A DNA stretch of 64,000 nucleotides from contig VXTR01000035.1 in NCBI GenBank assembly GCA_009837355.1, positions 49,531 through 113,530 of the forward strand. Reading direction: 5' to 3'. Both the position numbers and the translations under genes were made by a program. The DNA is from Chloroflexota bacterium. Lineage in GTDB: Bacteria; Chloroflexota; Dehalococcoidia; Lucifugimonadales; UBA3495. Positions 3,331 through 12,502 of the stretch are shown here, piece by piece. Numbering within the stretch: the stretch's first letter is position 1; every line of letters begins with the position of its first letter. A model generated the notes under the pieces. It was not told the DNA's origin, did not search any database, and saw nothing but the letters and a program-made list of their open reading frames with translations.

Positions 3331-3945
3331 CTAGCCGTCCAGGGTACCCTTGGTGCTGGGAACCTGCCCGACGGCTCGGGGGTCAGGTTCCACGGCGTCG
3401 CGGAGGGCGCGGGCCAGGGCCTTGCAAAGCGCTTCGGCTTTGTGGTGAGGGCTGACGCCAGCCAGTACCCTGGCGTGGAGGTTGATACGGGCTTCGATGG
3501 CAAAGGATTCCAGGAAGTGGGCCACCAGATCGCCGGACAGGGTTTCCACCATGGTGTCGTCAAGCGTGGTATCAACCGACGCGTAAGGCCGTCCGCTCCA
3601 ATCCACGGCGACCATCACCAGGGTTTCGTCCAGAGGCACGATGGCGTGGCCCATGCGTCGGATGCCGCGGGGTTCGCCCAGAGCCTGGGCGAAAGCGCGC
3701 CCCAACATGATGGCGGTGTCTTCCACCAGGTGGTGCCAGCCGACATGGGTGTCCCCCTGTGCGTTGACCTCGATGTCAAAGAGGCCGTGGCGGGCAATCT
3801 GGCTGACCATGTGGTCCAGGAAGCCGTTGCCGGTGTCAACATCGTAGTGACCCTGTCCGTCCAGGTTGACAGTGATGGAGATGCTGGTCTCGGCGGTGGC
3901 GCGCTGCAAGCTGGCAGTGCGGGCCGGAACTTCGGGCGTGGTCAT
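3331..3945 (-). CDS. hisB: Imidazoleglycerol-phosphate dehydratase (monofunctional)
   Basis: RATAET, FLDHM, HHLVED, PLDE, HHKAEA, PSTKG. Confidence 0.97.
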   Translation of the reverse strand: MTTPEVPARTASLQRATAETSISITVNLDGQGHYDVDTGNGFLDHMVSQIARHGLFDIEVNAQGDTHVGWHHLVEDTAIMLGRAFAQALGEPRGIRRMGHAIVPLDETLVMVAVDWSGRPYASVDTTLDDTMVETLSGDLVAHFLESFAIEARINLHARVLAGVSPHHKAEALCKALARALRDAVEPDPRAVGQVPSTKGTLDG

Positions 3946-3946
3946 G

Positions 3947-5041
3947 TCAGTCCACTCCCAAGACGGCGCGGAATCCGGCGATTACCGCGTCGGTCTCTTC
4001 GGGTTTACCCACGCTGGAACGGATGTAGTCGCGCAGCAGGTCGTTGTCGAAGTAACGCAGGAAGACGCCCCGGCGACACATTGCTTCATAGACCTCGCGG
4101 CCCCGTCCGTCGGGCATCTTGCAGAGGATGAAGTTGGCCTGGGACGGCCACACCTTGATTCCGGGGATTTCGCACAGCAGCCGGTACATGCGGGCCCGCT
4201 CGGTGACGATGGCGTCAACCCGCTCCAGCAGGTGGGCCGTGTCGGCCAGGGAGGCCAGCAGGGCGACTTCGGCGGCGAGGTTGACGTTGTAAGGCGGTTT
4301 CATGCCCATCATGGTAGCGGCCAGCTCGGTGTCCATGGCGCCAGCGCCGATGCGGAGGCCGGCCAGGCCGGCCCACTTGCTGAAGGTGCGGAGAACCACC
4401 AGGTTGCGATATTCGGGCAGCAGGGGCATCAGGGTCCGGCCGCAGAAGTCGTGGTAGGCTTCGTCGGCCACCACCAGCAGGCCGGTGTCCAGCAGGGCGC
4501 GGGCCTGGGCTTCGCTGACCAGGTTGCCGGTGGGATTGTTGGGACTGGGGAAAAAGATGATTTTGGTGCGGGGCGTGATAGCGCCCTTGATGGCCTCGAT
4601 GTCGATGTCAAAGTTGTCGTCGCGGGGCACGGACACGGCGCGGGCGCCGGCCACGTCGGCGGAGAAAGAGTACATTCCGAAGGTGGGCACCGGGATGATG
4701 ATTTCATCGTCCGGGGACAGGAACATACGCATCAGCAGGTCGATGATTTCGTCGCTGCCGTTGCCGGCGACGATATGCTCCTCGGGTACGCTGAGGTAGT
4801 CGGACAGGGCGGCGCGCAGGCGGCGCTGGGCCGGGTCGGGGTAGTGGTTGTAGTCCTGAAAGCTGCCCAGGGCTTCGGCGACCTGGGGCGACGGGCCGTA
4901 GGGGTTTTCGTTGCCGTTGAGCCGGATGACCCGATCCAGGGGTATGCCGGCTTCCTCGGCCAGGGTTTCGCTGGGAGAAACGCCCTCGTAGGTTTTGAGG
5001 CGGCTGATGTGGGGGAGCAGCAGGTCTTCGACGTCAGGCAT
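3947..5041 (-). CDS. hisC: Histidinol-phosphate aminotransferase
   Basis: NENPYGPS, GNGSDEII, SPNNPTG, DEAY, RTFSKWAGLAGLRIG. Confidence 0.96.
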   Translation of the reverse strand: MPDVEDLLLPHISRLKTYEGVSPSETLAEEAGIPLDRVIRLNGNENPYGPSPQVAEALGSFQDYNHYPDPAQRRLRAALSDYLSVPEEHIVAGNGSDEIIDLLMRMFLSPDDEIIIPVPTFGMYSFSADVAGARAVSVPRDDNFDIDIEAIKGAITPRTKIIFFPSPNNPTGNLVSEAQARALLDTGLLVVADEAYHDFCGRTLMPLLPEYRNLVVLRTFSKWAGLAGLRIGAGAMDTELAATMMGMKPPYNVNLAAEVALLASLADTAHLLERVDAIVTERARMYRLLCEIPGIKVWPSQANFILCKMPDGRGREVYEAMCRRGVFLRYFDNDLLRDYIRSSVGKPEETDAVIAGFRAVLGVD

Positions 5042-5199
5042 CAGTGTACTTCCGATAGGTCAGCGGGTGTGGGTGGCGGCGGGGCAATCCGCATTCACTT
5101 TATAAGGATTGGGGCCGGGGCGCAACCACCCATACGCACTGACGGGAACCGTCTTGGCTACGTTGGCTTGGGGTTTATAGTGGTTGGCCTCCGGTGGGT

Positions 5200-5245
5200 T
5201 GTCAGAATCAGGATTCACGGGATTTTGGGATTTTCAAGATTTTGG
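5200..5245. repeat. Short GGATTT(T) tandem motif
   Basis: GTCAGAATCAGGATTCACGGGATTTTGGGATTTTCAAGATTTTGG: four imperfect 8-9 nt units. Confidence 0.45.
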
Positions 5246-5624
5246 GTAGCCTGCGAGAGGTAAGGTGGTCGTTGTCAGCCCCACGGCCGGGGGTTAGTTC
5301 GCACTCCCACATAGGTGTTTTTGTGACGGAGACCTCCGGCAGGTCCGGGGATCTGGGGCCCGTCAATGGCCGCAGTGGTATCGCGCCGTGCCACACCTGG
5401 TCTTTCTCCCTGGCTGCAATTAGCCGGGATGGCAGCAGTGGCCGCTCCGGTGTCACGTCTGGTGTTTTGTGACGGTAATCTCGATCCGTCAATGGCAGCA
5501 GTGACCGCTCCGACGTGCGATTATAGGATTTGCTGACGGTTGTGGCCGTCGACGACCGGAACCGTGATGGTTCTGATTTACCTCTCGTTGCAGGCTGTGG
5601 GTTACCGATGGTTTCGCTAGCGAT
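5244..5624 (-). ncRNA. Candidate novel structured RNA with repeated hairpin modules
   Basis: Closing stem 5578-5596/5248-5263; CACTGC(T/G)GCCAT at an exact 63-nt period; TGACGG..CCGTCA hairpins; compensatory changes; own promoter. Confidence 0.6.
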
Positions 5625-5630
5625 GAGGCT

Positions 5631-5660
5631 ATTATGAACGGACGTTCTATGGTTTGTCAA
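5631..5660 (-). promoter_or_regulatory. sigma70 promoter with overlapping LexA-type (SOS) box
   Basis: TTGACA (5660-5655), 18 bp, CATAAT (5636-5631); GAAC-GTCC-GTTC at 5647-5636. Confidence 0.65.
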
Positions 5661-5723
5661 TGGGCCGGCGTCGGTGATTTTAGCAGATTTGGGAAAGTGG
5701 GCACTGGGAGGGGTTGCGGTTGG

Positions 5724-6047
5724 CTAGAACTGGCTGCGCACGGCGGCGAGGATTTCAGCCAGCTTGGCGTCGGTGAGGCGGGCGACGGTGTTGCCGAATC
5801 TACTTTCGGCAAGGGTAGCCAGCCGGTCGGGGCGCACCTTGCTATCCGGGTCTAAGCTTCCAGCGAGCAAATCGGCCGGGCTGATGGGTATCGCTCGGAG
5901 GTGCGGTATCTTGCTCGTAGTTACCGGACAAACTATCCAGTCCGCGTATCTGCCGTTGCCGACATCCGCCAGTAGGACGGTCGGACGGGGTTTCGCGTCG
6001 GCGCTGTCGGCATAGGGAAAGGGCAAAATGACGATATCGCCAACCAT
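5724..6047 (-). CDS. PemK/MazF family toxin (endoribonuclease)
   Basis: MVGDIVILPFPYAD..AKPRPTVLL..WIVCPVTT..SKVRPDRLATL; 107 aa; ATG 2 nt after the upstream stop. Confidence 0.9.
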   Translation of the reverse strand: MVGDIVILPFPYADSADAKPRPTVLLADVGNGRYADWIVCPVTTSKIPHLRAIPISPADLLAGSLDPDSKVRPDRLATLAESRFGNTVARLTDAKLAEILAAVRSQF

Positions 6048-6049
6048 GG

Positions 6050-9000
6050 TTAATCTTTCTGCTCCCGAATGTCGGGCAACGAGGCTAACCATGCCTGGTA
6101 TTCGGGATCATCATCAGATTCGTCGTAGTAGGAGTTAAAGGCCTCCAGGGCCATGGTCTCCCACTCGTTTTTTCCCCGGTCGTCGAAGACGATGAGGTGG
6201 CCGTCTTCCCAATAAGCCATCCCGTCCACAATGGCCATGGTTTTGACGCTGACGGTGCAGACGCGTTGCAGCAGGTCGATTACCGGTTCCTTGTAGTCGG
6301 CGAAGCGGTAGGTGTTGAAGCGCTCGCGGATGGTGGGGTCGCGGGGTTTCTTTTCCTTGTACTGGTCGAGAACCCACTCCAGGGCGGAGCGGCTGCCCAG
6401 CCGGTAGCGCCAGGTGGCTTCGGGGATGCCGGCCAGCGTAGTCACGGTGGTTCCGTCGTCCAGGGTGATGACGCCGCCGGACGTATTGGCGAGCAGGCGG
6501 GTTTTGTACGGTTTCGGACTGGGCCGGTCGTGTCGTTCCAGCGGGTAAGGTTCGGCGGATTCAAAGCCGATGTGCAAGTCCAGAAGTTGCTGGCCCATTT
6601 TGGCCCAGGCATCAAAGTCGTGGTAGAGGGGCAGACGGGGGAACTCGCGCAGGAGGTCAACCTGGTAGTCGTGGCGGTACACCGGGTCGTGGAGGACGGC
6701 GTAGGTGTAGGCGAACACGTCCTCGGCGGTAATGCCGTCGGGATAGGTGGCGTCGAAGTGGTCGCCCCACTGCTCACGGTAGTGGTCGTTGATGCGTTGG
6801 AGGCCCCACTGGGTGATGTTGCTGACCCGCTGGTCGTCGGGCGCGTAGCGGTAGAGGGGGAGGCATTGGGTGTCGCCGGTGAAGTGCCAATCGGTTAATC
6901 TGCTGGCCGCCAGAACGTAGAAATGCCGACCGTTCATGCTGAAATTGATGACTTGGTTAGGCTGTTTCAAATCCAGCCCAAATATATCGTAATGATTGCT
7001 GGTGAGCACGTCGTTCATCGTGAAGTCGGCGAAGTGATGTTTTATGACAAATGGGCGATACAGCGACTGAATGCGGTTTGCTTCGCTGTAGACAATGCGG
7101 TGCCCGCGCTGAAATTCGTTGCGCAAGTCGCGGCTCCACTTGATGACAGGGTTGTACGACTTGTCGTCTTCGTCGAGGAATCCGTTGTAGGTATCGGCAA
7201 AGAAAAGATATTTGCTTCGCAGATTGTCAGCCGAAAAGTCATACACCCACCCGTCGCGAGCGGTATTGACACCGGGCGTGCTGAGCTTAAACATCGCCTG
7301 TTCTTCCTCAACCGTCTTGGCGAACTTGGTTTCCCGGTCGGCAAGAGGAACCAGGGACCCAAAGTTGCTGTTGGACTGATTGAGCCACTGGGCATAGGCA
7401 TCGGGGGTAATTTCGAGGAAATCGAAGCCGTCCATAGATTTGTTTCTGACGTAGGCAAGCTTCTCAAAGGATCTGGCGTAGTCGTCAACGGCGTTGTAGA
7501 ACACCTTGAAACCGTCGGCGCCCTTGCGGCGCACCAAGAAATAGACTGCCACGCCGACGCGGATTTTATCGTCAAAGACGTTGCCACCCTCTCGTCGTCT
7601 CTGCTCCCCGATGGTGCGAGCGTTGCCCTTCAGGTCAATGGCCCACAGCTCGTTGAACTCCTCAGCCACCACCTTGCGAAATCCGTCATCCTGTCGAGCG
7701 TCCAGAAACGCATTGTTACTAACGAAGCCGATAATCCCATCTTCGGCTAACCTATCCGATGCCCAACGGATGAACCGCTTGTACATATCGTACTGCTTGG
7801 TCTTTTGCGCTGAACTGTTAGCGATATAGGTATCACTAATGCGACGGTCAACGTCGGGGTATGGATCGTTGGCGGTGCCATCGTCCCACAACGTCGCGCT
7901 GGCGTTATAGGGCGGATTGCCAATGATGACACTGATGGTTTGCTCGTTCTGTTCTTGCAGTCGCATCCAGTTTTCTTGAGAAATACCGCCGAAATGCAGG
8001 TCGAGCCGACCAGTGAACGTGTCGGCGGAAGTCCCCTGCCAGTCCATGTTGTCCAGGGTGTCGACGAAGCAGAGGTTGGGGAACTCCAGGTATTGGCCGG
8101 TGCGTTCCTTGTAGGTGTACTCGATGTTGAGGTTGGCGATGTAGTAGGGGAGGATGGCGACCTCGTTGGCGTAGATTTCGTTTCGGTACTTGTGCTCCAG
8201 GCGGTCGGCGGGCAGGTAGTTGATGAGGTTGGTGATGAAGGTGCCGGTGCCGGTGGCAGGGTCGAGGATGTTGATCCTGTCGTGGGCCAGAGACTTGCCG
8301 AAGCGCTTGTCGAGCAGCCAGTCCGCTCCCCTAATGATGAAGTCCACTACCTCGTTGGGGGTATAGACGACACCGAGGCGGTCGGCTGCCTCCGGATTGT
8401 AGGCTTGGTAAAAGTCTTCGTAGATGGCCTTGAGGAACTGCTGCTTTTCGGCGTAGTCGGCGATTTCGTCGGCGGCGCGGCCGATGGCGCCGTAGTAGGC
8501 GCGGAGGCGGTCGATGGCCTGGCGGCGCAAGTTGCCGGTGAAGAAAGTGCGCTCCAGTGCGTCCAACTGGACAGCGATATTGTTCTCCTGGTGGAACTGG
8601 TCTTCGGCGAAGACGCGCAGGAAGATGTCCTTGGTCAGAATGTGCTGCAAGAGCATCTCTCGGACCTGCTCAGGAGACACCCAGGGGCCGATGGTACGGT
8701 GGCACAGCGTGAGGAAAACGTCGGCAGCGGCGTGATATTCGGCGTTGTTGGCCTCCGCGTCGGCCACAGCCTCCCGCAGGGCCTCCAGAACCCAGGGCAG
8801 GTCGGCCCGGAACTGCTCCCTGGCTCGGCGAAACTCCCAAATCTCCGGTAGCTCGTAGTCCAAGAATTGGTTGATAATCCAGTCCAGCTCGCGGGGGCGG
8901 GACATATCCACCCGCATAATCATGCTGCCGTTCTGGTAGAGGACGGCGGTTTGGGAATCCTCGAAAAGGATGTTGTCCTGAGGGTAGCCGCGGTTGAACT

Positions 9001-9277
9001 TGGCCTGGATTTCGGCGTCGAGGTCGTCGTGGGTGTCCTTGGCTTCCCAATAGCCACGGGCCATGCGTAGGGAATCCTTGACGGTGCCGTCGGGCCGGTT
9101 GCGGGAGCCGATGGCCAGTTCGGGCACCAGCAGCAGGCGTTCGCGATGGTCGCGGCAGTAGGCGGCCAAGCAGTTCTGGAAAGCCGGCCGGATGTTCAGC
9201 TCGCTGTCGGAGCCGCCGAACTCGATCAGCTCGGAAAGCTCCTCGCGGTACTGGTCGATGTGGGGGTAGGAGGCCAT
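6050..9277 (-). CDS. Single-polypeptide restriction-modification enzyme (nuclease, N6-adenine MTase, type ISP-like specificity domain; no helicase) with extra acidic C-tail
   Basis: PDG..WEAKD nuclease motif, ILDPATGTGTF (motif I), IIGNPPY (motif IV), YRLGSRSALEWVLDQY C-terminal motif. Confidence 0.88.
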   Translation of the reverse strand: MASYPHIDQYREELSELIEFGGSDSELNIRPAFQNCLAAYCRDHRERLLLVPELAIGSRNRPDGTVKDSLRMARGYWEAKDTHDDLDAEIQAKFNRGYPQDNILFEDSQTAVLYQNGSMIMRVDMSRPRELDWIINQFLDYELPEIWEFRRAREQFRADLPWVLEALREAVADAEANNAEYHAAADVFLTLCHRTIGPWVSPEQVREMLLQHILTKDIFLRVFAEDQFHQENNIAVQLDALERTFFTGNLRRQAIDRLRAYYGAIGRAADEIADYAEKQQFLKAIYEDFYQAYNPEAADRLGVVYTPNEVVDFIIRGADWLLDKRFGKSLAHDRINILDPATGTGTFITNLINYLPADRLEHKYRNEIYANEVAILPYYIANLNIEYTYKERTGQYLEFPNLCFVDTLDNMDWQGTSADTFTGRLDLHFGGISQENWMRLQEQNEQTISVIIGNPPYNASATLWDDGTANDPYPDVDRRISDTYIANSSAQKTKQYDMYKRFIRWASDRLAEDGIIGFVSNNAFLDARQDDGFRKVVAEEFNELWAIDLKGNARTIGEQRRREGGNVFDDKIRVGVAVYFLVRRKGADGFKVFYNAVDDYARSFEKLAYVRNKSMDGFDFLEITPDAYAQWLNQSNSNFGSLVPLADRETKFAKTVEEEQAMFKLSTPGVNTARDGWVYDFSADNLRSKYLFFADTYNGFLDEDDKSYNPVIKWSRDLRNEFQRGHRIVYSEANRIQSLYRPFVIKHHFADFTMNDVLTSNHYDIFGLDLKQPNQVINFSMNGRHFYVLAASRLTDWHFTGDTQCLPLYRYAPDDQRVSNITQWGLQRINDHYREQWGDHFDATYPDGITAEDVFAYTYAVLHDPVYRHDYQVDLLREFPRLPLYHDFDAWAKMGQQLLDLHIGFESAEPYPLERHDRPSPKPYKTRLLANTSGGVITLDDGTTVTTLAGIPEATWRYRLGSRSALEWVLDQYKEKKPRDPTIRERFNTYRFADYKEPVIDLLQRVCTVSVKTMAIVDGMAYWEDGHLIVFDDRGKNEWETMALEAFNSYYDESDDDPEYQAWLASLPDIREQKD

Positions 9278-9281
9278 GATG

Positions 9282-9306
9282 ATGCGATTGAGATCGCATT
9301 CTAGCA
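9282..9306 (-). promoter_or_regulatory. Extended -10 promoter with overlapping inverted repeat upstream of RM gene
   Basis: TGcTAGAAT (9306-9298); ATGCGAT-N4-ATCGCAT (9282-9299). Confidence 0.45.
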
Positions 9307-9392
9307 TAGGGCCATCAGCCCCCCTGCGCGATACTCGCTGAGATTCGGCAGCCCATCCTGGTCCCGGTTGGAGGGGCAGAGGGTAAGCCGGG

Positions 9393-10739
9393 TTAGCGCG
9401 TTTGGGCGGCGGCGATGTGGTCGAGGCGGGCCTGGACGGCGCCGGCGTGGCCGGGCAGTCCTTCGGCTTCGGCGATGCGGACGGCGGCGGGACCCAGGTC
9501 GGAAAAGCGCTGGGGACTCAACCCGACGACGGGCATGGTGCGCAGGAAATGATGGACGCTGAGGGCGGAGCTGAAACGGGCGGTGCCGCCGGTGGGCATC
9601 ACGTGGGACGGGCCGGCGATGTAGTCGCCCATGACTTCCGGCGAGAACTCGCCGAGGAACAGGCCGCCGGCGTTGCGAATCTGGCCGGCCCAAGCCCAGG
9701 GGTCGGCGGCCATCAGGCACAGATGCTCGGGGGCGATGCGATTGGCGACGGTGACGGCTTCGTGGAAGTCGTCAACCAGGACGACGCAGCCCTGCCGTTC
9801 CAGGGAATGGCGGATGGTGTCGGCGCGGGGGTTGCCGGCGATTTGGACGTCCAGCTCGGACTCCACGGAGGCTACCAGGGAGTCGGAGTCGGTAACCAGG
9901 ATGGCGGAGGCCATGGGGTCGTGCTCGGCCTGGGCGATGAGGTCGGCGGCACAGAAAACGGGGTTGGCGGTTTGGTCGGCCAGCACGATGGTTTCGGTGG
10001 GGCCGAATACGCCGTCGATGTCAACCTGGCCCTGCACCATGCGCTTGGCATAGGCGACGAAAACGTTGCCGGGGCCGCAAATCTTGTCCACCCTGCGGAT
10101 GCTTTCGGTTCCGTAGGCCAGGGCGCCGATGGCCGGCACGCCGCCGACCTGATACACGGCGTCCACGCCGGCGATGCGGGCGGCGGCCAGCACGGTGGAG
10201 TTGAGCGGTTCGCTGCCACGGCGTGGGGTGGCCAGGACGACCTCACTGACGCCGGCGACGCGGGCCGGGATAGCGGTCATCAGGACGGTGGACGGGTAGG
10301 CCGCCGTACCGCCGGGAGCGTAGAGACCGACACGCTCCAGGGGGCGGACCAGTTCGCCCAGGCCGCCGCCCAGGTCAACCCAGTCGCGGGGCAGCGTGGC
10401 CTCGTGAAACTCGGTGATGCGGCGGGCGGCCAGCTCCAATGCCTGCTTCAAGTCGCCTGGCGTGTCGTCCCAGGCTGCGTTGAGCTGGGATTGGGGGACT
10501 TGGAGGTTGTCCAGTTCGGCGTCGTCCAGGAGTTTGGCGTAGCGGCGGACGGCAGAGTCGCCCTGGGCGCGGACATCGCGCAGCATTTGCAGGACGGAGG
10601 ACTCCGGCGTGGCGTCGGGGCCGAAAAAATCGCGAGTGCGCTGCAAGGCCGTTTCGGGCAGCGACGACAAGTCGAGGGGATCGATGCGGGTCAGGGCGGA
10701 TTCGGCGGCGGCGGGCCCGCGAACCTGTTTAAGTTGCAC
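9393..10739 (-). CDS. hisD: Histidinol dehydrogenase
   Basis: GLYAPGG, PSTVLM, GPGN, GPTE, QAEHD, APEHL, DYIAGPSHVMPT; GTG 10739 after GGGAG. Confidence 0.97.
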   Translation of the reverse strand: MQLKQVRGPAAAESALTRIDPLDLSSLPETALQRTRDFFGPDATPESSVLQMLRDVRAQGDSAVRRYAKLLDDAELDNLQVPQSQLNAAWDDTPGDLKQALELAARRITEFHEATLPRDWVDLGGGLGELVRPLERVGLYAPGGTAAYPSTVLMTAIPARVAGVSEVVLATPRRGSEPLNSTVLAAARIAGVDAVYQVGGVPAIGALAYGTESIRRVDKICGPGNVFVAYAKRMVQGQVDIDGVFGPTETIVLADQTANPVFCAADLIAQAEHDPMASAILVTDSDSLVASVESELDVQIAGNPRADTIRHSLERQGCVVLVDDFHEAVTVANRIAPEHLCLMAADPWAWAGQIRNAGGLFLGEFSPEVMGDYIAGPSHVMPTGGTARFSSALSVHHFLRTMPVVGLSPQRFSDLGPAAVRIAEAEGLPGHAGAVQARLDHIAAAQTR

Positions 10740-11490
10740 TGAGATACTCCCGGGCCTGGGCAATGGTTTCATCGATGACGCGCTGGCGGTAGTCGTCAAT
10801 CAGTTCGTGAGGAACGTGCTGGTACACTCGCTCCAAGCTGTCCGGCATCTGAGACAGGAAGCCATCAACAACCTGCTGCACTTCGTCGTTGTCGCGGTAC
10901 ATACGGTTGAGGGCGCGCTTGAGGCGATCCCAAGTGAAATCCCAGCCCAGCAGGCGGGCAACCCAACCGCGCCACTCGTCGATCAGCTCGTCCTGCAGGA
11001 ACTCCAGAGCCGGCATGGTGTCGACGGCGGCGATGGCGTCGTTTTCGGCGGACAGGCCGCCGCTTTGGCTGAGTACCGAGCGATCCATGTCCAGTTGCAG
11101 GGCACGGTCCCAGATTTGTGCCTCAACTTCGGTGTCGGTAATGAGGTTGGCCGGGTCAAAATGGGGCCGGAACATGGTGGTAATCCACAGTTCATCGGCG
11201 ACGATGTGGCTGATGTAGCCGAGCAGGAAGGAACGGGTTTGCGGGGTGAGCCCGTTGTCGGAGCCGGCCAGGTGGGGGTACAGCTCAAACATACGCTCGA
11301 CGCCGGCGCCAACTTGGGTAACGGACAAGTCGGAAAAATGGGTGCGGCCCCGGTCCCACTTGGTCATAGCCCGTATGTCCGGCGTAGTAGAGCCGAGATA
11401 GGCTGCGCCGGGATGGTCATGGCAGTAACCCCAATCCAGCTCGGTGGCAATTTGCTGGCACAGGTAGATGTGCATCGGGAGGTTAGGCAT
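10729..11490 (-). CDS. Zinc-dependent phospholipase C family protein
   Basis: MPNLPMH, YLGSTTPD, THF, GYISHIVADELW metal-ligand pattern; overlaps hisG and hisD. Confidence 0.75.
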   Translation of the reverse strand: MPNLPMHIYLCQQIATELDWGYCHDHPGAAYLGSTTPDIRAMTKWDRGRTHFSDLSVTQVGAGVERMFELYPHLAGSDNGLTPQTRSFLLGYISHIVADELWITTMFRPHFDPANLITDTEVEAQIWDRALQLDMDRSVLSQSGGLSAENDAIAAVDTMPALEFLQDELIDEWRGWVARLLGWDFTWDRLKRALNRMYRDNDEVQQVVDGFLSQMPDSLERVYQHVPHELIDDYRQRVIDETIAQAREYLSAT

Positions 11491-12502
11491 AATCGGCCGG
11501 GCCTCCGTTGAGGGCGGCGACGCGGTGCAGGAAACGGTCGAACGCCTGAGACTGGCCCTTGAACAGGTAGGACAGCTGGGCGGCAGCGATGTCAACGCCG
11601 CCGCACTCGCGCAGGTGGGCCACGGCGTCCAGCAGCCGGTTCTTGCGTATCAGCAGGGAAACGGCGTACCAGTCCTCTTCCTCGACGCTAAATACGCGGG
11701 CGACGGTGGGACCCTGGATGCCGGCGATTTCGGGGCGGGCCAGGATCATGGCGCTGACGTCCTCGGGCGAACGTCCCTGCACGTTGGCGGTGATGCGGTA
11801 GTAAGGTTCGGCGCGCAGGTGGGCTTCCAGCATTTCGGTGAGGGACTGGGCCAACTGCAGGTCGTCGGGCTGTTTGGCCAGGGTGTGTGGGTTGGCGATG
11901 AGGCACGCTTGCGAGGTCAGGATGGTGCCGCCGTCGACGGTTTTCAGACGGTTTTCCCGCAGCGTAGTGCCGGTGGCGGACAGGTCGGCGATAAGGTCGG
12001 CATAGCCGGCGATGGGGGCGGCCTCCAGGGTGCCGCTGGCCGGAACCAGGGTGAAGTAATTGATGCCGCGCTCAAACAGGTAGCGGCGCAGCAGCCGGGG
12101 GTACTTGGTGGCGATGCGCAGCTGCCGGCCCCGGGCGTGAAACTCCAGGGCCAGGTCGGCCAGGTCGTCGATGGACGTTACGTCCAACCAGGAATCGGGC
12201 ACGGCCAGCACGTAATCGCAACCGCCAAACTCCAGGTCGTCCATCACCGAGACGACGGCGTTTTCGTCATGGCGGTATTCCATGAGACGGTCCAGGCCCG
12301 TGATGCCCATTTCGGCGCTGCCTTCCTCCACCTTGGTGGTGATGTCGGCGGTGCGCTGGAACAGCACGTCGATGCCGGGCAGGGCGGGTATGGAGCCGGT
12401 GTAACGTCTGGCGTTGGGACGACTCACCTTGACGCCGCAGGTCGCCAGGAACCGCATGGTCGGCTCGCCCAGTTCGCCGTCGCTTGGAATTACCAGTCTC
12501 AC
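11483..12502 (-). CDS. hisG: ATP phosphoribosyltransferase (long form)
   Basis: GITGLD, IATKYP, GTLEAAP, DLSATGTTLRENRL plus C-terminal GPTV regulatory domain. Confidence 0.95.
   Translation of the reverse strand: MRLVIPSDGELGEPTMRFLATCGVKVSRPNARRYTGSIPALPGIDVLFQRTADITTKVEEGSAEMGITGLDRLMEYRHDENAVVSVMDDLEFGGCDYVLAVPDSWLDVTSIDDLADLALEFHARGRQLRIATKYPRLLRRYLFERGINYFTLVPASGTLEAAPIAGYADLIADLSATGTTLRENRLKTVDGGTILTSQACLIANPHTLAKQPDDLQLAQSLTEMLEAHLRAEPYYRITANVQGRSPEDVSAMILARPEIAGIQGPTVARVFSVEEEDWYAVSLLIRKNRLLDAVAHLRECGGVDIAAAQLSYLFKGQSQAFDRFLHRVAALNGGPADYA

Follow-up and report, generated by a model that had tools for sequence, protein, structure and literature searches.

Restriction-modification (RM) and toxin-antitoxin (TA) systems are the two commonest defence and addiction modules of bacteria and often lie side by side; to our knowledge, PrrC and EcoprrI are almost the only case in which physical coupling of the two is understood in detail. 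The locus described here raises the question of how a MazF-family toxin could be held in check when its gene directly follows that of an RM enzyme and no separate antitoxin gene adjoins it. The locus lies on the minus strand of a 64,000-nucleotide (nt) stretch of a sponge-associated Chloroflexota bacterium (GCA_009837355.1, contig VXTR01000035.1, positions 49,531–113,530 of the forward strand), referred to here as the window, and window positions are given throughout. The computational lines followed make it probable that the RM enzyme itself carries the MazF antitoxin, fused in cis as a C-terminal tail. This reading is favoured because tail and toxin co-occur in both directions of comparison, the tail is under purifying selection, tail and toxin subtypes match, an interface is predicted, and a second tail type is paired with ParE. 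Two defence systems are, most likely, physically wired together here in a way that has not been described previously.

The open reading frame (ORF) listing and the translation agree on a single open frame at 9307..6050, of 1085 amino acids (aa). The RM gene likely starts at 9277 (Met11, giving a protein of 1075 aa), as homolog alignments begin at this methionine; the in-frame ATG upstream at 9307 would give the 1085-aa form. The frame closes with a TAA stop (6052–6050), and the mazF ATG (6047) follows after a spacer of 2 nt. Positions 6048..6052 are therefore marked by both stop and spacer, and are a likely site of termination-reinitiation coupling. No ORF was found in the interval between the RM stop and mazF, and the sequence and the ORF list thus agree with the original prediction that the toxin gene begins 2 nt after the stop and lacks an adjacent separate antitoxin ORF. 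On the 3' side of mazF, the sole ORF is one of 150 aa with a TTG start (5660..5208), the DNA of which is unconserved among related loci, except for a short repeat. Contigs from three sponge-metagenome runs, possibly the source of this very DNA, carry 5600–6700 with no differences or indels.

The protein encoded at 6050..9277 is a DrdV-like, type IIL/IIG single-chain RM enzyme with a fused tail, as evidenced through PADLOC, Pfam, structural homology and motifs. The PADLOC REase_MTase_IIG model matches residues 19–1030 (912.7 bits), and the Pfam domains are ISP_coupler, N6_Mtase/Eco57I and Type_ISP_C, the last ending at residue 1012. This last domain (PF18135, E 2.3e-73) forms the target recognition domain (TRD), at residues 672–1012 (6272..7294). 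The translation also shows PD...EAK, DPATGTGTF and NPPY, which we take to be the PD-(D/E)XK nuclease, the S-adenosylmethionine-binding motif I and motif IV, respectively. The best match among solved structures is 7lo5_A (1029 aa; E 2e-285), in which chain residues 6–1024 align with residues 17–1030 of the query, and which we take to be DrdV. The length of the chain is consistent with the 1029 residues given for DrdV in the available text of a preprint, where a single-chain type IIL enzyme is described with an N-terminal nuclease, a helical connector, a methyltransferase and a C-terminal TRD, forming dimers to tetramers on DNA (10.1101/2021.01.06.425610). Placement in type IIL/IIG follows from full-length similarity to this characterised member, with the same order of nuclease, connector, methyltransferase and TRD, and the catalytic motifs of the type are present by sequence. 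With domains, full-length match and motifs all in place, the enzyme looks complete, comprising nuclease, connector, N6-adenine methyltransferase and TRD.

The downstream gene (5724..6047) encodes a MazF/PemK-family toxin of 107 aa plus stop, of which residues 3–106 match PF02452 (PemK/MazF) at E 3.4e-14, with 53.4 bits against a cut-off of 23.1. Its profile matches solved MazF chains at E 0.003–0.006. Among 15 MazF homologs, R21 and P22 are invariant and T43 is nearly so; R21 and T43 align with the RP and IT positions of Staphylococcus aureus MazF chains and are presumably catalytic.

The original prediction held that 56 aa of the RM protein lie beyond the usual end of its family. The last 56 aa (6220..6050) are as it quoted them, being identical to the translation of 6220..6053, and an extension is indeed present; it comes to about 50 aa rather than 56, because the family ends a few residues beyond the boundary assumed. 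The RM protein runs about 50 aa past the end of 7lo5_A, which itself ends about 5 aa beyond the residue aligned with query residue 1030, and past the end of tail-less relatives, which stop 10–25 aa after a VS.xT motif. The extension has two parts. A proximal part (MAYW...GDRDK, about residues 1036–1047; 6167..6202), a conserved hairpin-like linker in the tail alignments, is common to all tail types and is kept in short-tailed homologs, the tails of which end just past it. The distal part (residues 1048–1083; 6059..6166) is acidic, contains the invariant block DDDPEYQ.WL..LPDI and is the segment predicted to bind MazF. The tail is under purifying selection in the RM frame, with ratios of nonsynonymous to synonymous polymorphism (pN/pS) of 0.16 for the tail, 0.12 for the distal tail and 0.21 for MazF (15 pairs from 6 close loci).

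A scan of contigs from one genome per species identified 41 tail-bearing loci, all of them in metagenome-assembled genomes of Dehalococcoidia/Chloroflexota. RM sequence and tail share one frame in 35 of these, comprising 26 in frames of at least 950 aa, seven cut by a contig end and two on RM fragments. An intact MazF is present in 30 of the 41 loci and in each case stands behind an intact in-frame tail. The spacing from the RM stop to MazF is 2–6 nt in 29 of these 30; in the remaining one (L021), MazF begins 21 nt past the stop, behind a small duplication. Five loci have a defective MazF: a short repeat element breaks it up in L009 and L015, L020 has another disrupted copy, a frameshift affects that of L018, and the one of L025 has an internal stop. 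Five more have no MazF (L010, L013, L027, L028 and L044), and one (L034) ends at a contig edge. There are therefore ten loci with a tail but without intact MazF, and none with intact MazF but without a tail. Decay is asymmetric in that the tail persists without MazF and never the reverse, which fits a toxin that depends on this antitoxin.

The converse comparison drew on 29 loci with RM homologs, taken from 401 genomes sampled across the class, in which MazF was sought within 1.5 kb at E≤1e-3. Tails are absent from 26 of the 29 loci, which end 10–25 aa past VS.xT, and no MazF match was obtained within that distance and threshold at any of these 26; 11 of them are 51–65% identical to the query region. 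The three remaining loci comprise one with a type-B tail (a shorter acidic form described below) and a C-terminal remnant of MazF (L053), one with a truncated tail and no MazF (L049), and one frameshifted copy at a contig end (L050). The alignment of homologs proposed with the original prediction therefore bears out its expectation that the tail is extra to the family and co-occurs with a downstream mazF. As judged from these sequences, the RM-tail/MazF arrangement is a conserved module and not an accident. Searching a phylum sample of 401 genomes with the tail returned the genome of the window and one weak match only, and a search of the same sample with the RM C-terminus at E≤1e-40 returned the genome of the window alone, a result that is uninformative on type-B loci. 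A tail scan of metagenome contigs returned three unrelated proteins, which share only DPEYQAW.

Several features of the loci with missing or broken mazF were observed in passing. Where MazF is missing, a conserved 121-aa PD-(D/E)XK_3 protein (PF13366, E 7.4e-37) is encoded just downstream of the RM gene, at L010:6345-6710, L013:6304-6711, L027:6885-7250 and L028:6386-6751. A short repeat interrupts or replaces mazF at L009:6165-6320, L015:6165-6300, L028:6175-6327 and others, is scattered in the flanks, and has ...SEAGFAGFYDLAGLG... among its in-frame peptides; in appearance it resembles a miniature transposable element of these genomes. One contig from another sponge-metagenome study (run X5, record 27) matches the RM C-terminus at 6177–6366 with 17 differences, and the repeat at 5612–5639, with 493 other letters replacing the 537 between the two matches; it possibly represents a relative in which the distal tail and MazF cassette differ.

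Whether the tail could contact the toxin was addressed by complex prediction, using two copies of MazF and the last 62 residues of the RM protein with own alignments of each. This combination scored 0.87 in all three runs, against 0.29 for the best control, so that the multimer prediction proposed earlier came out in favour of binding. The pass mark of the predictor is reached by 58 of 80 solved complexes and by 2 of 110 mismatched pairs. The pLDDT (predicted local distance difference test) of the partner was 71–72 and contact agreement was at least 88%. The predicted interface comprises residues 25–60 of the tail chain, which are RM residues 1048–1083; the proximal extension at about 1036–1047 lies outside it. 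Contacts are predicted to be extensive with one MazF protomer and to reach its dimer partner also, and they take in MazF residues 19–22 and 41–47, hence Arg21 and Thr43. The distal tail is thus predicted to bind directly over the active face of MazF.

Tails were typed in the best 120 of 5462 RM homologs. Within these 120, the type-A tail, as found in the window (DDDPEYQ.WL..LPDI), is present in 29; a shorter acidic type-B tail with a Trp-rich terminal motif is present in 53, and 38 have short or other ends. In three read-through fragments (P0073, P0139 and P0147), the type-B tail runs straight into the N-terminus of MazF. Subtypes were compared in 28 intact modules, being the window and 27 loci, with L021, L023, L038 and 11 loci without intact MazF excluded. 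The MazF proteins of these modules form eight clusters, each with its own tail middle segment. Pairwise identity of the distal tail correlates with that of MazF (rho 0.44; reached by 0 of 2000 permutations), against a rho of 0.12 for the 400 aa of the RM protein before the tail (reached by 56 of 2000). At the level of sequence, this shows that tail and MazF travel together; it does not demonstrate co-evolution, because tail and mazF adjoin. Modules of different subtypes can occur in one genome, as in OZ242258.1 (L004, L016 and L042) and jk18x27bins.51 (L014 and L017), and OY761558.1 and IRC4_bin_11 each have two modules of one subtype. As a separate observation, the proteins P0014, P0026 and P0030 (and P0005) have tails reaching 79 aa past the KT motif, with an apparent tandem duplication of an EW...L.L..WF helix ahead of the type-A end; these are hybrids of type-B-like and type-A middle segments.

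A further tail type was found in three loci (L009, L013 and L015), in which the RM frame departs just after VSVKT, at the same junction, into an unrelated tail of 63 aa (L009:5441-5886; L013 and L015:5531-5719). In L009, the start of a ParE toxin gene (PF05016, E 1.3e-9) overlaps the stop of this alternative tail by ATGA, and ParE is followed by a free-standing type-A tail remnant of 75 aa and then by a MazF broken by the repeat element. A separate tail that goes with ParE at the same junction is a case of independent modularity. A search for free relatives of the ParE-linked tail returned two proteins only, both of them RM C-terminal fragments. The tail is weakly similar to a 161-aa protein in the antitoxin position before a paralogous ParE of the same locus, with 14 of 30 identities (E 0.001) in that one pair. 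Additional ParE paralogs are present downstream in L009, L015, L024 and L035.

Several results weigh against the fused-antitoxin reading. The first concerns homology, as the tail has no match in Pfam, NCBIfam or PADLOC and nothing better than E 0.4 in the PDB, so that the homology search suggested earlier did not give an antitoxin match. A tail profile run against 1.84 billion protein representatives gave 21 matches, and the 15 of these that were examined are pieces or remnants of RM tails plus one weak, unrelated repeat protein, with no free antitoxin family among them. Counting the hhalign comparison described below, no homology to MazE or any antitoxin was detectable in the family libraries, the PDB or the profile search, and the tail cannot be placed by sequence in any known antitoxin family. 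Furthermore, AlphaFold2 modelled the TRD plus tail poorly (mean pLDDT 52.5, tail mostly <50); this model was not used, and no statement on the exposure of the tail on the enzyme is drawn from it. The score of 0.87 for the complex was obtained with own alignments, which are outside the calibration of the predictor, and may be inflated by solved MazE-MazF complexes. Finally, physical linkage alone could yield the matching of tail and MazF subtypes.

The comparison with free antitoxins was made in the class sample, at 29 loci that hold the nearest MazF relatives unlinked to RM genes. Upstream of these MazF genes are small proteins that differ in their N-terminal parts, and in 21 of the 29 loci the upstream protein ends in an acidic motif of W, 2–3 residues, (P)EED, one residue, AW, two residues and L. 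The statement in the original prediction that small MazF antitoxins end in an acidic Trp-containing tail therefore holds for most of these proteins, but the likeness it drew to the RM tail does not extend to the profiles: alignment of RM tails with free-antitoxin C-termini by hhalign, another result on the unfavourable side, was insignificant (P 0.014–0.087, over 5–12 columns). A self-written pattern for the free-antitoxin end fits 21 of 29 free-antitoxin loci, 15 of 48 type-B tails, 0 of 26 type-A tails and 5 of 5000 control 30-mers. The RM tails thus resemble free-antitoxin C-termini in composition and position only. Shared ancestry of the two was considered and dropped, given the insignificant hhalign result and the 0 of 26 type-A tails fitting the pattern, and for the same reasons the tail is called antitoxin-like here by function and context, not homology. 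As for the usual features of a type II TA pair, an antitoxin adjoining its toxin is present in fused form, with binding predicted; a DNA-binding, autoregulating antitoxin is not, and it is the RM enzyme that stands upstream of the tail. The claim that the RM protein itself neutralises MazF is therefore supported by co-occurrence, selection, subtypes, the predicted interface and the ParE-paired tail, but not by antitoxin homology.

The alternative that survives best, although it is unlikely, is that a free 56-aa antitoxin is translated from the in-frame ATG at 6220 (6218..6220; M1030), which would make the fusion incidental or minor and the locus an ordinary two-protein TA system, its antitoxin gene nested in frame at the RM 3' end. 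The methionine codon is invariant in all 33 printed sequences (the window and 32 loci), the DNA upstream is G-rich, and gene callers have produced proteins starting at this position, of 57 aa (P0007) and 51 aa (P0141). A free 75-aa form with its own ATG is also present in the decayed loci L009, L013 and L015. However, no clear conserved Shine-Dalgarno sequence was found upstream of the ATG, and the G-richness there is explained by conserved Val, Asp and Gly codons. Some tail-less homologs also have a methionine at the matching position, and the free 75-aa forms occur only beside a disrupted or missing MazF. Were the fusion dispensable, some of the 30 loci that have an intact MazF might be expected to show a stop between RM and tail, yet none does. 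An internal start and a fused antitoxin are compatible and do not exclude each other.

It is considerably less probable that the extension serves the RM enzyme itself, through oligomerisation, regulation or stability, with MazF a mere neighbour that is neutralised otherwise or is non-toxic. DrdV-type enzymes do act as DNA-bound dimers to tetramers, according to the available preprint text (10.1101/2021.01.06.425610), and the proximal MAYW...GDRDK segment may belong to the enzyme, since short-tailed homologs without the distal acidic part keep it. The solved homolog 7lo5_A and the 26 tail-less relatives nevertheless manage without the extension, and the distal tail is associated with MazF or its remnants (5 of the 41 tail loci being without any MazF). 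The matched subtypes, the predicted interface, the 2–6 nt coupling and the swap for a ParE-linked tail at the same junction are likewise at odds with a role confined to the enzyme. In the 89-contig draft genome of the window, one further PemK-family gene is present, on a different contig, and a second tail copy was not found. That other gene (L078, G000:C40:6083-6361; 60 bits) stands behind a 255-aa ORF without an obvious family. The remaining alternative, a fusion created by a lost stop codon or an assembly error, could be raised because the genome is a draft and several related loci are decayed, but it is scarcely credible and already effectively refuted by the same fused frame in 35 of 41 related loci, a tail pN/pS of 0.16 and the indel-free contigs of three runs (possibly source DNA).

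If the RM enzyme carries a fused antitoxin, the following course of events may be envisaged. The peptide that neutralises the toxin in a type II TA pair would have been added to a complete type IIL RM enzyme as a C-terminal extension of about 50 aa. Ribosomes finishing the RM-tail protein would reinitiate on mazF, as the spacing of 2–6 nt suggests, and because of this termination-reinitiation coupling each MazF would be made only after a tail. The distal 36 residues of the tail, acidic and Trp-containing, are predicted to wrap one MazF dimer, covering its Arg21/Thr43 face, and the ribonuclease (RNase) would stay inactive within an RM-MazF2 complex. The DNA-binding domain usual in antitoxins is absent; the RM enzyme would stand in its place, and expression would be driven by the RM operon instead of by autoregulation. 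MazF would be freed once the supply of tail stops or the tail is removed. Candidate triggers are phage-induced shut-off, attack on the RM enzyme, proteolysis of the tail where it is exposed, and a lost or truncated RM gene, to which may be added an anti-restriction protein and engagement of foreign DNA by the enzyme itself. After release, DNA restriction would give way to RNA cleavage and growth arrest. A guard or abortive-infection role for the module is plausible.

A broader proposal, which is tentative and rather doubtful at present, is that the C-terminus of this RM family is a general toxin docking site. Exchangeable peptides, of two MazF-binding types and one ParE-linked type, would tether a silent toxin, and the state of the enzyme would decide on arrest, whether it is inhibited by phage anti-restriction, destroyed or clipped, no longer synthesised, or assembled on foreign DNA into cleavage oligomers. 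If true, this would amount to a hard-wired switch from restriction to abortive infection that also punishes RM-truncating mutations.

In the window, the RM-MazF module is located inside a row of histidine biosynthesis genes (3331–12502, minus strand), with names read from the translations only: hisG (12502..11483) and hisD (10799..9393) on one side, hisC (5041..3947) and hisB (3945..3331) on the other. According to the ORF listing, a 288-aa ORF (10729–11595, minus strand) is present between hisD and hisG, with a slight overlap at both ends. Neither hisD nor hisC was found within 6 kb at any of the 41 related loci, and the module is mobile on the ground that none of them shares these neighbours. 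The spacer of 680 nt between mazF and hisC holds short multi-copy repeats, at 5600–5680 and 5190–5250. The former is matched at about 90% by many other contigs of the same metagenomes, followed by divergence, and a piece of about 50 nt near the latter recurs in related loci. A strong sigma-70-like site (TTGACA-18-CATAAT; 5660–5631, minus strand) lies within the 5600–5680 repeat, directed toward hisC. A scan for promoters and terminators gave counts no higher than those of shuffled sequence, and an Rfam search of 4900–9500 gave no match.

Full-text literature searches, with subscription journals and supplements beyond their reach, returned no report of an RM enzyme with an antitoxin tail. The coupling seen here is apparently written into the polypeptide, is conserved, has diversified into matching subtypes and is repeated with another toxin family. 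If true, it would provide a simple, testable model of a first-line defence handing over to a second line, and may explain some MazF genes that appear to be orphans; to annotation pipelines the toxin appears unguarded, because the tail matches no family model. It would also offer a short, portable peptide of about 36 aa that silences a MazF, and would suggest that antitoxin peptides are graftable onto unrelated enzymes in nature.

The closest comparison on the side of the toxin is with MazE-MazF and PemI-PemK. MazE binds the MazF dimer through an acidic, Trp-containing C-terminal peptide, and the present locus resembles these systems in having a PF02452 toxin, a putative neutraliser encoded immediately upstream and an acidic Trp-containing peptide that is predicted to lie over the MazF dimer. 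It differs from them in that there is no separate antitoxin gene and no AbrB, RHH or other DNA-binding domain, the peptide being part of a 1075-aa enzyme, and in that no homology between the tail and MazE or known antitoxins is detectable by sequence. In the cis-fused toxin-antitoxin protein EzeT, the antitoxin is likewise supplied as part of a larger polypeptide, but its fusion partner is the cognate toxin, whereas here the partner would be a third-party defence enzyme.

On the side of the enzyme, DrdV is similar over its full length (7lo5_A) and in domain order, but ends at residue 1029 without an extension, and a toxin partner is not mentioned in the available part of its description (10.1101/2021.01.06.425610). 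For HEPN RNases that are linked or fused to RM systems, a multi-pronged defence has been proposed in which an RM subunit reversibly inhibits the RNase (Anantharaman et al. 2013, PMC3710099). In the systems covered by the accessible part of that work, the toxin domain is fused to or adjoins nuclease or helicase subunits, whereas here it is the antitoxin part that is fused and MazF is separate. RM guardian systems are also treated in a 2025 review (PMC12707154). The precedent invoked by the original prediction, PrrC held inactive by the type I RM enzyme EcoprrI, agrees with the literature, as far as the available portions of the sources go: PrrC is an RNase in an RM locus that is kept latent by association with EcoprrI and serves as a second line of defence once restriction has been countered (PMC1484252, PMC2610378). 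The likeness is that an RNase gene is attached to an RM locus, here with mazF 2 nt past the RM stop. PrrC, however, is an ABC-ATPase plus HEPN-type protein associated with a multi-subunit type Ic enzyme and triggered by the Stp peptide of T4, whereas the toxin here is a 107-aa MazF of the PemK fold, proposed to contact the enzyme through a dedicated, antitoxin-like C-terminal extension of the RM protein.

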